A stretch of 8,520 nt of DNA from a virus (taxonomy: Duplodnaviria; Heunggongvirae; Uroviricota; Caudoviricetes), in IMG/VR virus record IMGVR_UViG_2563367003_000003. The stretch is one strand, 5' to 3'. This document shows, one piece after another, positions 3,190 to 8,520 of this stretch. The stretch's first letter is position 1. The number at the start of each line of letters is the position of its first letter. The notes below the pieces were generated by a model that ran no database searches, was not told the origin of the DNA, and saw only the letters and a list, made by a program, of their open reading frames with translations. The position numbers were made by a program, and so were the translations under genes.

Positions 3190-5865
3190 ATGAAATCTGA
3201 CATCAGAAAAGAGATTATTAACCGTCTTATCCGTGATTACAACTTCAAAGAAGAAAATAACTACCTCCGGTATGGTGTTTGTCCGCAATGTGGAAAGAAA
3301 GAGTTGTTTACCAGCCTTGAAAGGCCGTACATCGTACACTGCGGGCGTGAAAATAAATGCGGTACAGACCTGCTGACTAAAGAACTTTACCCGGATGTGT
3401 TTTCATCATGGTCAGATCGCTATATCAGTACGAAAGATGAACCATACGCAGCGGCGGCAGCTTATCTCCTGGAGGCACGCAATATTGCTACAGAGCCACT
3501 GAAGGGGGTATTTACCCAGGAGCGATACAAAGACAAGGAAAGCGGCGAACAGGCCGCTACTGTGCGTTTTACGCTGGCTGACGACGTGTGGTGGGAGCGC
3601 ATCATAGACCGACCGGAACGCTTCGAACGGAAGGCGAATTTTTCCGGCAGCTACAAGGGGTTGTGGTGGGCTTATCCGGGAGCAGATTTAAGCAAGGCCA
3701 AAGAAATCTGGATTTGTGAGGGTATCTTTGATGCCATCAGCCTTAACCAGAATGGCATTGCGGCCGTTTCTGTCATGTCTGCCGTGAGCTACCCTGATAA
3801 GGCACTGGAAGAGCTGGCGAAGCTGTGCGGGGATAATCCCCGTCCGGTTATCGTGTGGGCGCTGGATAACGGGCGTGCAGGTGAGCGTTACGCGAAAAAA
3901 CATGCAGAACGCAGCGCCGAAGACGGCTGGAGAACGGCAGCGGCGTTGCCAGGTAAAAACAACAATAAACGCGACTGGAATGATTTACACATCGCCGGAA
4001 AGCTGCGTGGCCATGATGTGAAAAGATACCGTTATTACGGTGATTTATTGCTGGCGAAATCTCCAAGAGATAAGGCACTAATAATGTTTTCCTTTCGTGA
4101 GCGGAAGGAATTTCATTTTACTTTTGATAACCGTGTTTTCTGGTTCAAGCTGGACATTGAGCGCCATATGAAGGCTGTTGAGCGTGTCATTAATGAGCGA
4201 AATGTTGATGAGGATGAAGCGCGCAAAATTGCACTTAAGGAATCTGGTGCAGTAAAAGAAATCGCAAACTGTAACCCAGCGCCGCTTTATTACATTCGAA
4301 ATAATGACACGGATGAAGCATGGTATTACTTCCGTGTTACGTTCCCGGATGGTGCTACGGTGAAAAACACCTTTACATCAGGACAATTAACATCCTCATC
4401 TGAATTTAAAAAACGCCTGTTACACGTGGCAAAAGGCGGTATTTATACCGGAACGACTACGCAGCTTGACGCATTAATAAAAAATGACCTTCCCGCAATA
4501 AAAGAGGTTATTGGTCAGGATTTTATCGGATACAACAAGGCGATTGGGGCATGGCTGTTTAATGATATTGCTGTTTACAAGGGAAAAACTTATGAAATCA
4601 ATGACGAGGATTATTTTGAAATTGATGGCATAAACGCAAAACCATTAAGCGAAAAACCCACATTACAGATTAACTACAAAAAACCGGATGAATTTACAGC
4701 GTCCTGGGTGGAAGATCTCTGGCTGGCTTTTGGTGAAAAGGGAATTATTACCCTGGCTTTCTGGTTGGGCTCCCTGTTCAGCGAACAAATCCGGGATAAA
4801 GAAGAATCCTTCCCTTTCCTTGAAGTCACCGGAGAGCCCGGAACGGGCAAATCAACATTGATTGATTTTTGCTGGCGGCTGTGCGGTCGTGACAACTACG
4901 AAGGAGTTGATCCAACCAAAGGATCAGAGGCGGGCTGGAAGCGCACCTTTGGACAGGTCGCCGGATTGCCTGTTGTTCTGATTGAAGCAGACCGGGGAGA
5001 CAATGCGCAAAAAAGAGGTGCGTTTGACTTCGATAACCTGAAAAGCCTCTATAACGGTGGCGGTATCGGTGTTCGTGGGGTTAAGGCCAACAATAACAAC
5101 ACCTATGACCCGGATTTTAAGGGCGCTATCGTGATTGCGCAGAATGCGCGGGTAAATGCCTCGCCGGCAATTATTGAGCGCCTGATACGCATATACACCG
5201 ATAAAAAACGCCATTCACCTGATACCCGACTGGCGGCGAGACGGCTGGAACTCTACCCCGTCGAGAAGGTATCGGGGTTTATTCACCGGGCGGTAAGTCA
5301 GGAACGGGCGATTATGCAAACGTTCCTGGAAGTATCGCCCGCTGAAACGGAACGCCTTTGCGGATGCGAAAATATTCGCCATCCCCGTATTGCCAAAAAT
5401 CACGCGCAACTTATCGCGCTGGTCAGGGCGCTGAAATGCGTTATCGATATCCCGGATGAATGGCTTGATGCCACATGTCTGGAACTGGAACAAATGGCAA
5501 CGGCGCAGGTTAAAGCGGCGGCGGCTGACTTGCCAGAAGTGATGGAGTTCTGGGAGGCGTTCGACTTCCTGGACGGCATAACAAAATACGGTGTAAACCA
5601 TTACGGCAAGGGATGCCGCGAAGGGATTGCTATCAGTATTCCGCAACTGGCACAGGCTGCCGCCATTCACCGCGTGGAGATCCGAACCGATCGCGAAATG
5701 ATTGAGTTGCTCGGAGCTGGGCGTTCCCGACCGTTGACAGGCCGTAAAACCATTCGTAGTGAGGTGTCCAGACAGGCAAACGCCGGAAAAGGAGTAGCCG
5801 AAGCCAGAGAGCCGGAAGTACTGAAATGCCGGATATTCAGTTACAAGGAGGTCACCGAAAAATGA
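3190..5865 (+). CDS. Bifunctional DNA primase/helicase, P4 alpha-like replication protein (zinc ribbon + TOPRIM-type primase + P-loop NTPase)
   Basis: Track ORF 3166-5865 begins with GTG inside the hairpin; the first ATG at 3190 has SD GGAG (3178-3181). Motifs: zinc ribbon CPQCG...HCGRENKCG (about nt 3279-3363), TOPRIM-like EGIFDAISL (about 3715-3744) with ALDNGRAG (about 3859-3882), Walker A GEPGTGKST (about 4832-4858), Walker B-like VVLIEAD (about 4970-4990). Architecture matches P4-family primase/helicases. Confidence 0.85.
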   Translation: MKSDIRKEIINRLIRDYNFKEENNYLRYGVCPQCGKKELFTSLERPYIVHCGRENKCGTDLLTKELYPDVFSSWSDRYISTKDEPYAAAAAYLLEARNIATEPLKGVFTQERYKDKESGEQAATVRFTLADDVWWERIIDRPERFERKANFSGSYKGLWWAYPGADLSKAKEIWICEGIFDAISLNQNGIAAVSVMSAVSYPDKALEELAKLCGDNPRPVIVWALDNGRAGERYAKKHAERSAEDGWRTAAALPGKNNNKRDWNDLHIAGKLRGHDVKRYRYYGDLLLAKSPRDKALIMFSFRERKEFHFTFDNRVFWFKLDIERHMKAVERVINERNVDEDEARKIALKESGAVKEIANCNPAPLYYIRNNDTDEAWYYFRVTFPDGATVKNTFTSGQLTSSSEFKKRLLHVAKGGIYTGTTTQLDALIKNDLPAIKEVIGQDFIGYNKAIGAWLFNDIAVYKGKTYEINDEDYFEIDGINAKPLSEKPTLQINYKKPDEFTASWVEDLWLAFGEKGIITLAFWLGSLFSEQIRDKEESFPFLEVTGEPGTGKSTLIDFCWRLCGRDNYEGVDPTKGSEAGWKRTFGQVAGLPVVLIEADRGDNAQKRGAFDFDNLKSLYNGGGIGVRGVKANNNNTYDPDFKGAIVIAQNARVNASPAIIERLIRIYTDKKRHSPDTRLAARRLELYPVEKVSGFIHRAVSQERAIMQTFLEVSPAETERLCGCENIRHPRIAKNHAQLIALVRALKCVIDIPDEWLDATCLELEQMATAQVKAAAADLPEVMEFWEAFDFLDGITKYGVNHYGKGCREGIAISIPQLAQAAAIHRVEIRTDREMIELLGAGRSRPLTGRKTIRSEVSRQANAGKGVAEAREPEVLKCRIFSYKEVTEK

Positions 5866-6872
5866 CGATAAAGAAGTTGGTTAACGGTAAGTTTGCTGTG
5901 GACGTGCGGCCTGCAGGAGCAGAAGGAAAAAGATTCAGGCGGCGATTTGATACTCGTGGTGAAGCAGTGGCGTATGAACGCCATGTTCTGATGCACTACC
6001 ACAACAAAGAGTGGGTCGAAAAGCCCATTGAACGTAAAGCGTTAAGCGATCTTCTGGAATTATGGTGGGCGTATCATGGCAAGAATCATCGTTATGGAGC
6101 GATGACGCGGGTAAGAATTGAAGCTGTTCTTTGTGATATGCGCGAACTTGGGATAAACAGAAGCGATCATTTAACCCGGAAAAATATTATCAGATATCGA
6201 CTTAAATTAATGAATCGTGGAATTAAACAGTCAACAGTAAATCGCTATTGTGCCATGATGAGCGGTTTCTTTGAAAAGCTGATTGATGCTGAAGAGTTTG
6301 CGGGTAATAACCCGTTTCGCGAGATACGTAAGTTAAACATTAATCAGCCAGAAATGGCTTATCTTGCACATGATGATATTTCCAGGCTAACCGCGCTTTT
6401 ATCTGGCGATAATCTTAAGGCTGTATTGTTGTGTCTGGCTACAGGTGGGCGCTGGGGTGAGATTGCCAATATTAAAGGTGAGCACATAATTGGCGGAAAG
6501 GTTATTTTTATGAAGACAAAGAACGGCTCAAGGCGGGTCGTTCCAATCGCTAAAGATCTTGAATCACTGGTCAAAGTAAAGGCGACCGGAAGATTAATGA
6601 AACCTAATTATGCAACTGTCAGAAGTGCAATAAGGACTGTGCGGCCTGATTTACCCGTCGGTCAGTCTGTGCATGTTTTACGGCATACCTTTGCCACTCA
6701 CTTTATGATTAATGGTGGAAACATCATCACATTGCAGAAAATACTAGGACACAGCACTATTCAGCAGACGATGACTTACGCGCATTTTGCACCGGATTAC
6801 CTGGCAGATGCCATGAGATTTAACCCGGTAGCCAACATAGTGATCACCGAAGAAAAAGAGCCAGCAGAGTAA
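5862..6872 (+). CDS. int: Tyrosine recombinase, P2-Int-family integrase, 336 aa
   Basis: N-terminus MTIKKLVNGKFAVDVRPAGAEGKRFRRRFDTRGEAVAYE and the catalytic region (GGRWGEIANIK; HVLRHTFATHFMINGGNIITLQKILGH; TMTYAHFAPDYL with the tyrosine nucleophile) closely parallel P2 Int as I recall it. Near-consensus SD AAGGAGGT (5845-5852). The ATG at 5862 overlaps the primase TGA (5863-5865) as ATGA. The track start at 5826 is an upstream in-frame extension. Confidence 0.9.
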   Translation: MTIKKLVNGKFAVDVRPAGAEGKRFRRRFDTRGEAVAYERHVLMHYHNKEWVEKPIERKALSDLLELWWAYHGKNHRYGAMTRVRIEAVLCDMRELGINRSDHLTRKNIIRYRLKLMNRGIKQSTVNRYCAMMSGFFEKLIDAEEFAGNNPFREIRKLNINQPEMAYLAHDDISRLTALLSGDNLKAVLLCLATGGRWGEIANIKGEHIIGGKVIFMKTKNGSRRVVPIAKDLESLVKVKATGRLMKPNYATVRSAIRTVRPDLPVGQSVHVLRHTFATHFMINGGNIITLQKILGHSTIQQTMTYAHFAPDYLADAMRFNPVANIVITEEKEPAE

Positions 6873-7120: not shown

Positions 7121-7440
7121 GGGGGGGGATGCGCAAAGCGGTTACAACGGTTACAAATTTAAAATCACTTATTTTTGCATTATATATCAATACATTATAA
7201 CTGGTCGGATGAGTTACAAAAGCGGTTACAACGCGGTTACATGTAACCGTTTTGTTAGGTTACAGGCGGTTACAGGTTAAGTTTTTAATTGATTGATAAT
7301 AAAGTGCTTTTTGAAACCTGTAACCGTTGTAACCGCAGTGTAACCGCAAAGCGGTTACAAACAATATCCATTAAAATCATGCTGTTAAGTGGTGTTTTTG
7401 ACTGTTGTAACCGTTGTAACCGCTTTGCGCACCCCCCACC
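7121..7440. repeat. Iteron array of GGTTACA/TGTAACC heptamers around an AT-rich core, bounded by 36-bp near-perfect inverted repeats; candidate replication origin and/or att arm-site region
   Basis: Forward GGTTACA at 7140, 7149, 7224, 7235, 7258, 7268, 7353 (plus partial GTTACA at 7213); reverse TGTAACC at 7242, 7319, 7328, 7339, 7406, 7415. Left repeat 7121-7156 (GGGGGGGGATGCGCAAAGCGGTTACAACGGTTACAA) matches the reverse complement of 7405-7440 at 34 of 36 positions, with the inner 26 perfect. Internal palindromes GGTTACATGTAACC (7235-7248) and TGTAACCGCAAAGCGGTTACA (7339-7359). AT-rich segments at 7157-7210 and 7275-7318. Confidence 0.8.
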
Positions 7441-7663
7441 GGATTATGAGGCAGAGCCCCAAAACAACTGGCCTGACCTCTAACAAAAATGCAACATCAA
7501 TCATTGATTTTTTGGAGCTGTCAGTCACGGGGAGTTGCCCTGTTGTCTGGCAGAAAAATGAAGTATGTACATGCGCGGCGGGGATGGTAAAAAACGTAAT
7601 ACACGCGGCGCAGTTGCCATAAAAAATCTCTCAAAAGCACTCTTTTTGACGCTATTGTTCATC

Positions 7664-7690
7664 TGCACAAAAGTGCACAAATTTGCACAA
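7664..7690. promoter_or_regulatory. Three helically phased direct repeats of TGCACAA (10-bp spacing); candidate regulator-binding array
   Basis: TGCACAA at 7664-7670, 7674-7680 and 7684-7690; a fourth copy at 7756-7762. TTGACG (7646-7651) sits upstream and TAGAGT (7696-7701) downstream. Lies in a non-coding region upstream of the ogr-like gene. Confidence 0.4.
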
Positions 7691-8013
7691 TTTTTTAGAG
7701 TAACTTTTTGCCCATCCGGCCCAGTACTGGCGCGCCCGGAGGGCGATTTCGTGCGTGCACAAAAAACGGTGAGTTTTTCGCGCGCAGGTGACGGGGGAAC
7801 AGCACGCGTTTCAGGGGGTAAATTACATTTTCGCTAAAGGCTGCGGGAATGCCCCGACCGGGTTAGTTTTATCGCCAGCCAGAGCCGTTCTTACGGCAAG
7901 AGAGAACTGATACGGGGAATGTGACGAGTGAGCATGGGAACGGCGCGCCCGTGCGTAATACGCGGCGACTGCTGCGGGTTTATTTGATACAGCCAGAGGG
8001 GGGCGGCAGAAGA

Positions 8014-8053
8014 TATAATAGGTTAAATTTCACACCAGTAAGAGGAGCGTGAT
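8014..8053 (+). promoter_or_regulatory. Promoter -10 element and RBS of the ogr-like gene
   Basis: Perfect TATAAT at 8014-8019. No good -35 at 17 +/- 1 bp (TTGATA at 7984-7989 is too far), which would fit an activator-dependent or extended promoter. SD AGGAG (8043-8047) 6 nt before the ATG at 8054. Confidence 0.4.
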
Positions 8054-8236
8054 ATGTCTTTCCCTTGCCCGGCCTGTGGCGCTTCAGCCCGCACCCGTGG
8101 TCGTTCGTTGGAAGAACACGAACAAAACATCTACAGAACGTATTACCAGTGCAATAATATTGAGTGTGGGGCTTGTTTTTGTACGCTTGAGTCGTTTGTA
8201 CGCATTACTAAGCGCAGGAAGTCGAAAACTTCATAG
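8054..8236 (+). CDS. ogr: Ogr/Delta-family zinc-finger late-gene transcriptional activator, 60 aa
   Basis: C-x2-C ... C-x4-C arrangement (FPCPACGASARTRG...YYQCNNIECGACF...ESFVR) aligns with the P2 Ogr / P4 Delta zinc-finger pattern as I recall it. Good SD and -10. The overlapping track ORF 8049-8381 in another frame is rejected. Confidence 0.8.
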   Translation: MSFPCPACGASARTRGRSLEEHEQNIYRTYYQCNNIECGACFCTLESFVRITKRRKSKTS

Positions 8237-8286: not shown

Positions 8287-8520
8287 TTACGTCGTGTGGT
8301 TCTGGTCATTTGCCCAGGCCCACACATCCCCCGCTACATTGCGCCCGTTGCAGTCTTCTTCCTGCGTTTCCCCGGCCTTAATTCCCTGACTGATAAACAT
8401 TCTGACGCACTGGGAGTAGTTCATCTCTCTGTCCTGACATATCTGATTTATTTTATGGTCGATTTCGTGCGGGATACGAATACAGCGTAATACGCATCGC
8501 ATTTTCTTTTGTTTTTTCAT
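8287..8520 (-). CDS. Hypothetical protein, possibly a ribbon-helix-helix-like DNA-binding protein; 5' end at the window edge and possibly truncated
   Basis: Minus-strand ORF with stop at 8287-8289 and an ATG exactly at 8518-8520, so it may extend beyond the window. Segment RIPHEIDHKINQICQDREMNYSQCVRMFISQGI has a strand-helix-helix pattern reminiscent of CopG/Arc-type regulators; this is a structural guess, not a motif match. Convergent with the ogr-like gene. Confidence 0.4.
   Translation of the reverse strand: MKKQKKMRCVLRCIRIPHEIDHKINQICQDREMNYSQCVRMFISQGIKAGETQEEDCNGRNVAGDVWAWANDQNHTT

Follow-up and report, generated by a model that had tools for sequence, protein, structure and literature searches.

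What function resides in the roughly 600 bp that separate a block of GGTTACA iterons from an ogr-like gene in this viral DNA? Within the window, by which we mean the whole stretch of 8,520 nucleotides that was analysed, these sequences occupy positions 7441-8040. The initial annotation described them as GC-rich and devoid of a credible ORF, and drew attention to phased copies of the heptamer TGCACAA, which were taken as a site for cooperative binding by a regulator; an att core and a non-coding RNA were offered as further possibilities. The description as GC-rich holds in relative terms only (50% G+C in 7441-8040 against 45% in the window); the surplus lies entirely within 7721-8040 (about 55%).

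Four copies of TGCACAA were located in the whole 8520-bp window, all on the + strand (7664-7670, 7674-7680, 7684-7690 and 7756-7762), which confirms three copies exactly 10 bp apart and a fourth at 7756. The copy number alone is unremarkable, since four occurrences of the 7-mer were reached in 23 of 200 shuffles. A triple at exact 10-bp spacing was obtained in none of the 200, with two mismatches allowed. The 10-bp palindrome CCAGTACTGG, which had also been pointed out, is present at 7721-7730 but carries no weight, since the window contains seven perfect 10-bp palindromes against 8.4 expected; it is disrupted in the close satellite relative L114.

E. coli chromosomes contain the 600 bp with 100% identity and, based upon the PGAP annotation of E. 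coli C25, the window is part of an island of about 13 kb between gcd and hpt. The island encodes, in order, an integrase, a hypothetical protein, an HTH protein, an Icd-like protein, small ORFs and a toprim primase, followed by a second tyrosine recombinase, the GGTTACA repeats, the region under study, an Ogr/Delta zinc-finger gene, two hypothetical proteins, a P2-family major capsid protein and MazEF. It is bounded by a 24-bp att duplication (22/24 identical) of the hpt start (L001 11164-11187 and 24125-24148), which restores the start of that gene, the island being inserted in the hpt 5' end. Nothing in 7441-8040 takes part in this duplication, and the att core suggested for the region is therefore abandoned. 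A doubled GTGTATCAAT repeat, lying near both island ends (L001 11312-11335 and 24040-24063), probably represents the integrase arm sites.

Searches against Rfam revealed a C4 antisense RNA (74.6 bits) and isrK (52.2 bits) within 1759-1966 and nothing outside that segment of the window; the segment constitutes an RNA immunity module of the P1/P4 type. A c4-a1b1 target element, below threshold, was also noted in 1759-1966, which overlaps the region annotated as the Icd-like protein gene. In 7441-8040 there was no Rfam 15 match at E<=1, leaving the idea of a non-coding RNA there without support. The island possesses a P4-like toolkit consisting of an integrase, an alpha-type primase, an Ogr/Delta protein, a P4-type immunity RNA and terminal att repeats. 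No homologs of Sid or Psu were found in it by tblastn with the P4 proteins. Having a P2-family capsid gene in place of sid and psu, the island is P4-like in its lifestyle and is not a canonical member of the P4 family. The capsid protein has 423 amino acids with an N-terminal extension of about 130 residues, and matches Pfam Phage_cap_P2 (2e-72) and phrog_70 (1e-76). Its gene (L001 21956-23227) lies about 2.7 kb to the right of window position 8520, follows one for a 236 amino acid protein without a family match, and was also found in the related loci L129, L114, L133 and L118. According to reviews, P4-like satellites share almost no structural homologs with their helpers, so that the lineage of this island may be capsid-encoding.

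A search of genome contigs with the primase yielded just one close relative. In the distant satellite L118 the primase and capsid protein are only 35% and 32% identical, respectively, to those of the island, and the layout of three plus one TGCACAA copies is kept. The second tyrosine recombinase (5826-6872), which lies directly after the primase and is additional to the integrase at the left end of the island, shows 74% nucleotide identity to the phage P88 integrase. L129 and L133 have in its place a protein with only 48% identity, the primase being 95-97% identical and the downstream DNA near-identical, and for this reason it looks like a swapped cassette.

Comparison of the window with phage genomes using megablast gave two kinds of match, one to the second recombinase and the other to 7663-7829, a stretch of 160 bp. 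The latter shows 81-83% identity over about 160 bp to genomes of the Peduoviridae, among them P88 (P88/Xuanwuvirus type), vB_EcoM-569R5 and PhiR44_2; the homologous stretch corresponds approximately to 7664-7823. In every annotated phage match it has the same orientation and occupies the gap that separates early or accessory genes (gpA, partition genes, small ORFs) from the portal gene's 3' end; the genes for portal and large terminase, on the other strand, lie downstream. The P2 record (NC_001895) shows the same location, with cosL at 1-19 and the end of gene Q at 187, and it is beside the portal gene that the literature places the cos of P2-like phages (PMC9122126). The stretch is, therefore, homologous to the P2-like cos region next to portal gene Q.

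IMG/VR was then scanned for the triple repeat, which was found at a minimum of 120 loci (>=120); with the earlier phage loci and the window this gave 125 sequences. Among the matches listed, in about 110 of the 125 the genes for portal and large terminase follow directly, in the same orientation. The rest comprise several loci that end near the site, the unplaced L125, and satellites related to the island. Four of the 125 (L026, L031, L073 and L116) proved to be unrelated tandem repeats and were discarded. L125 carries a phage-type cos block at 7143 with no portal gene within about 7 kb downstream; its recombinase and ogr-like gene are 43% and 51% identical, respectively, and the locus could represent a rearranged prophage or a satellite of a different kind.

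Conservation was computed on 107 unique triple-repeat sequences. Among the matches listed, it is high in 7664-7720, 7750-7769 and 7780-7823, and absent in 7721-7749 and outside 7664-7825; the homology to phages begins exactly at 7664 and stops at about 7825. The comparative alignment that had been advised at the outset found the repeats conserved in phage loci and in satellite relatives alike. The block is retained in those satellite relatives in which the recombinase, the integrase or the iteron type has been swapped. In 114 of 120 loci, among the matches listed, the first distal and the proximal copy are exactly 92 bp apart. A fixed 92-bp distance across a variable spacer is the hallmark of a protein-DNA assembly whose geometry is constant, rather than of an RNA or a coding element.

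The ends of the P2 and P4 records were joined and the resulting sequences aligned with the window and with seven of the phage homologs. All have a common order: a TGCA group, about 70 bp of unrelated sequence, a TGCA followed by an A run, about 20 bp, and a G-rich segment. In P2 the TGCA words precede the known nick by 123, 111, 101 and 29 bp, and in P4 by 124, 111, 101 and 29 bp; the TGCACAA copies in the window precede position 7785 by 121, 111, 101 and 29 bp. These motif-to-nick distances represent the strongest evidence for a cos site. The window accordingly has the core architecture, in which a G-rich cohesive-end segment of some 19 nt follows a TGCA motif at about 29 bp and is flanked by GCG-rich sequence, together with distal TGCA motifs some 101-124 bp upstream. 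The GTGCAT-N4-TTGCAT pair occurs only once in the P4 genome as a whole, and only once in the right end of P2. By our count, P2 and P4 have 55 bp in common, beginning with the proximal TGCATTAAAA and finishing with GCGCGC; the window counterpart extends from 7756 to about 7810, and in the alignment its opening TGCACAAAAAA (7756-7766) corresponds to TGCATTAAAA. The counted length agrees with that of the 55-bp core conserved in P2-family phages (PMC5694545, PMC5247547).

The 19-nt cohesive end of P2 and P4, GGCGAGGCGGGGAAAGCAC, is annotated as cosL/cosR in NC_001895, and its equivalent in the window is (CA)GGTGACGGGGGAACAGCAC. Identity to P2 was counted at about 14 of 19 positions in the ungapped register 7787-7805. 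G-rich ends which are akin to these, for example GGTGAGGCGGGGTCCAAC and GGTGGGGCGGGGTCACAACT, occur in other P2-like phages (PMC5694545, PMC5247547). We predict a top-strand nick between approximately 7784 and 7785 and a bottom-strand nick about 19 nt further, with an uncertainty of about 2 nt, since spacing points to 7785 and similarity to the P2 GGCGAGG to 7787. Position 7805, within the predicted cohesive end or at its margin, is an A in the window and in L133, and a C in nearly all phages and in the satellites L129 and L114. None of the phage records examined begins at a cos site of this type, and in the literature we found no paper with the sequence GGTGACGGGGGAAC or with determined ends for this type of cos.

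We propose, with a probability of roughly 0.87, that 7664-7823 is the cos packaging site of the approximately 13-kb P4-like satellite island, and that it is matched to the cos of a helper phage (Table 1). The stretch is homologous to helper cos, has the geometry of P2 and P4, and is located in a satellite. The TGCACAA copies are probably terminase recognition elements, and the protein which binds them is likely to be the terminase of the helper rather than one of the satellite's own transcription factors; a host factor might bind them instead, or they might act purely through DNA bending. A protein-binding array, as had been inferred from the phasing, is still the most plausible explanation of the repeats; the regulator to which it was ascribed is unsupported. 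The segments 7441-7663 and 7824-8040 lie outside cos.

Table 1. Features in and around the proposed cos site (positions in the window).
Feature	Position	Strand	Evidence
Satellite-specific spacer from GGTTACA iterons to cos	7441-7663	.	No phage homology; L114 divergent with a 46-bp gap; no Rfam match
90 amino acid ORF, PGAP 'hypothetical protein', judged not to be a gene	7565-7837	+	No family; stops in phages; deletion in L114
Distal triple of TGCACAA at 10-bp spacing with an A/T run after each; proposed distal terminase-recognition elements of cos	7664-7690	+	Shuffles; phage homology; P2/P4-like distances
T-rich block within cos (TTTTTT...CTTTTTGCCCnTCCGGCCC)	7691-7720	+	Window base in 70-99% of 107 sequences at most positions
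Spacer of fixed length and variable sequence, with CCAGTACTGG and the small dyad CGCCCGGAGGGCG	7721-7749	+	Conservation near zero
Proximal copy TGCACAAAAAA, highly conserved	7756-7766	+	Alignment with circularised P2 and P4 cos; 29 bp before 7785
Predicted cosN cohesive-end segment, (CA)GGTGACGGGGGAACAGCAC	7785-7805	.	P2/P4 alignment and spacing; highly conserved except at 7805
Right cos flank, conserved (GCGTTTCAGGGGGTAAAT)	7806-7823	+	Conservation profile and BLAST boundaries
Satellite-specific region upstream of the ogr-like gene	7824-8040	+	About 95% conserved in L129 and L114; absent from phages
Ogr/Delta-like zinc-finger gene, outside cos	8054-8236	+	Pfam PF04606, E = 3.3e-11; PGAP annotation

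After excision and replication, the circular DNA of the satellite would be recognized by the terminase of a P2-like helper with a cos of the P88/Xuanwuvirus type. The terminase, probably through its small subunit, would read the four TGCACAA words, three of which present themselves on one helical face at 7664-7690 while one stands near the cut site at 7756, and the phased A/T runs that follow the distal words probably also bend the DNA. The large subunit would then nick the two strands about 19 nt apart near 7785-7805, the staggered nicks generating predicted 5' cohesive ends of about 19 nt, and the satellite genome would be packaged in helper-derived capsids. Terminases of the P2 family prefer monomeric circles for packaging (PMC2231350).

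Could 7664-7823 instead be a dead cos, or helper DNA captured by recombination and no longer functional? The neighbourhood of cos is a recombination hotspot in P2-like and P4-like elements (PMC9122126), and the window departs at 7805 from the C of nearly all phage sequences. In addition, no cognate helper prophage was detectable in the best 20 matching genomes: with one match per genome among these 20 island-bearing E. coli genomes, there was no co-resident helper prophage cos to be detected at the megablast level. Against a remnant, all of the conserved blocks and their spacings are intact, the block has been kept in the satellite relatives, and the layout of three plus one persists even in the distant L118. 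We consider a non-functional relic very unlikely.

The possibility that TGCACAA forms an operator array, at which an Ogr-like, AlpA-like or repressor protein controls the ogr-like gene, is weaker again. The copies are phased at 10 bp and the array lies upstream of that gene, whose TATAAT without a -35 may need an activator. However, some 330-390 bp separate the array from the ogr-like start codon, and the phage homology stops at 7825, well short of the ogr promoter region. Moreover, among the matches listed, the identical array is found beside the portal gene in about 110 phage loci with no ogr-like or AlpA-like gene adjacent. Proteins of the Ogr/Delta type are expected to act at a TGT-N12-ACA dyad that precedes the transcription start by about 55 bp; the window contains two matches to this pattern (383 and 1518), neither of them in 7441-8040, so that the region has no Ogr box.

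Little can be said for the array as part of the satellite's replication origin, by analogy with the 'type 2' repeats of the P4 ori, three 10-bp units in direct succession, and we hold this to be scarcely credible. The array does adjoin the GGTTACA iteron block at 7121-7440, and the 10-mer TTGTTCATCT precedes triple decamers both in the P4 ori (L005 9166-9210) and in the window (7654-7693). Yet the P4 decamers, CCACTTAAAG, are unrelated in sequence, L114 has not retained the TTGTTCATCT 10-mer, and one match of this length between sequences as long as these is, by our estimate, expected by chance; the occurrence of the 10-mer in both is probably a coincidence. L114 also has a different iteron variant (GTAACCT) next to the same cos-to-ogr block. 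The repeats occur, furthermore, in P2-like phages, and P2 replicates by a different, gene-A-dependent mechanism, which again counts against an origin.

The remaining alternative, a genuine 90 amino acid protein encoded at 7565-7837, is hardly tenable. This is the longest open frame on the + strand of the region and it has been annotated by RefSeq in many genomes. Neither it nor a 77 amino acid ORF matches any Pfam or PHROG family, an in-frame TGA is present in all of the phage homologs (...CAATTTTTTTGA..., the frame reading CAA TTT TTT TGA), and L114 lacks the start region through a deletion. In other genomes (H16, H17 and H19) no gene is annotated in copies that are about 99% identical, and conservation follows DNA blocks and not codons. 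The view that the region holds no credible ORF is thus upheld despite the PGAP call, and the RefSeq 'hypothetical protein' is likely spurious, an annotation which identification of the locus as cos corrects.

P4 and other cos-type satellites are well known to have a cos matched to that of the helper, and are defined by it. The cos of this island is, then, most likely the expected biology of a P2-dependent satellite, and not a new regulator site, att core or RNA gene. It belongs to a type with TGCACAA words and a GGTGACGGGGG... end which is matched to P88-like rather than to P2-like helpers. The cos of P4 resembles it in being a satellite copy of a helper cos, with matching TGCA distances followed by a G-rich 19-nt cohesive end; according to Ziermann and Calendar (1990), in the form in which that work is cited in PMC9122126 and PMC2231350, P4 cos is cut by the helper terminase. 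The two differ in their word (TGCAT in P4, TGCACAA in the island), in the cohesive end (some 14/19 positions being identical), and in their setting, P4 cos lying between psu and gop, beside the defence hotspot, and that of the island between the ori iterons and the ogr-like gene. The island cos also matches helpers of the P88/Xuanwuvirus type and not P2 or 186.

With the P88-like Peduoviridae the agreement in sequence extends to an identical order and spacing of the blocks. In the phages, however, the portal and terminase genes come next, whereas in the island cos is followed by the ogr-like gene and the capsid-gene module; the variable 30-bp spacer reads GGATCC...GGATCC in phages and CCAGTACTGG...CGCCCGGAGGGCG in the island. 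In coliphage lambda, cosB and cosN comprise the R1-R3 sites for the small terminase, an IHF bend and an overhang of 12 nt. The island cos has no sequence relationship to it, and the resemblance would be one of principle only, short repeats beside a nick site recruiting the small terminase on bent DNA. The cos-carrying PICIs of Gram-negative bacteria are likewise chromosomal islands with a helper-type cos for packaging, but they have the cos of lambdoid helpers together with redirecting proteins, in contrast to the P4-type toolkit and P2-family cos described here (PMC6092414).

The site probably marks where the island is cut and packaged, and indicates its probable mobilizing helpers, those with a P88/Xuanwuvirus type of cos. 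The cos type should, consequently, help in predicting the horizontal transfer of the island and its cargo, including the MazEF toxin-antitoxin pair. The conserved motif spacing in the P2, P4 and island cos sites provides a testable model of what the P2-family terminase reads, which could aid the design of cosmids or transducing particles with a chosen helper specificity. Two points are of some interest, namely the precise geometry of three plus one words that the site shares with P2 and P4, and an island without sid and psu that has its own P2-family capsid gene. Perhaps the array of three plus one TGCA words is the recognition code of the Peduoviridae small terminase, and the island the representative of an undescribed P4-like lineage; this combined suggestion is tentative, and we think it rather doubtful. 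The word is TGCAT in P2, 186 and P4, and TGCACAA in P88-like, Klebsiella and Enterobacter phages; in the literature we did not find the array described as such a code. If the code is real, variants of the word and of the cohesive end would define packaging-specificity groups that are tracked by satellites. The lineage, if correctly recognized, would be one without sid and psu, possessing its own P2-family capsid protein and tuned to helpers of the P88 type.

The flanks of cos have features of their own. Inverted copies of a 36-bp sequence, 94% complementary to each other, enclose the GGTTACA/TGTAACC block (7121-7156 and 7405-7440), with runs of G8 and C6 on the outside; the block may be an origin bound by the primase or a site for the adjacent recombinase. 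On the other side of cos, 7824-8040 contains a terminator-like hairpin (7961-7976) and a TATAAT (8014-8019) that lacks a usable -35, and the ogr-like gene has its ribosome-binding site, AAGAGGAG, at 8040-8047. No sigma-70 consensus promoter was discovered in 7441-8040 by a promoter scan, and the region has only two terminator-like matches, one being the hairpin at 7961-7976 and the other formed by the repeats themselves. A motif, CGTAATAC(A)CGCGGCG, is present on either side of cos, at 7595-7608 and 7954-7967, with similar words near 8483 and at L001 22787. Its copy at 7954, which lies about 50-60 bp upstream of the ogr TATAAT and overlaps the terminator-like hairpin, is kept in L114, and the motif could be a regulator site.
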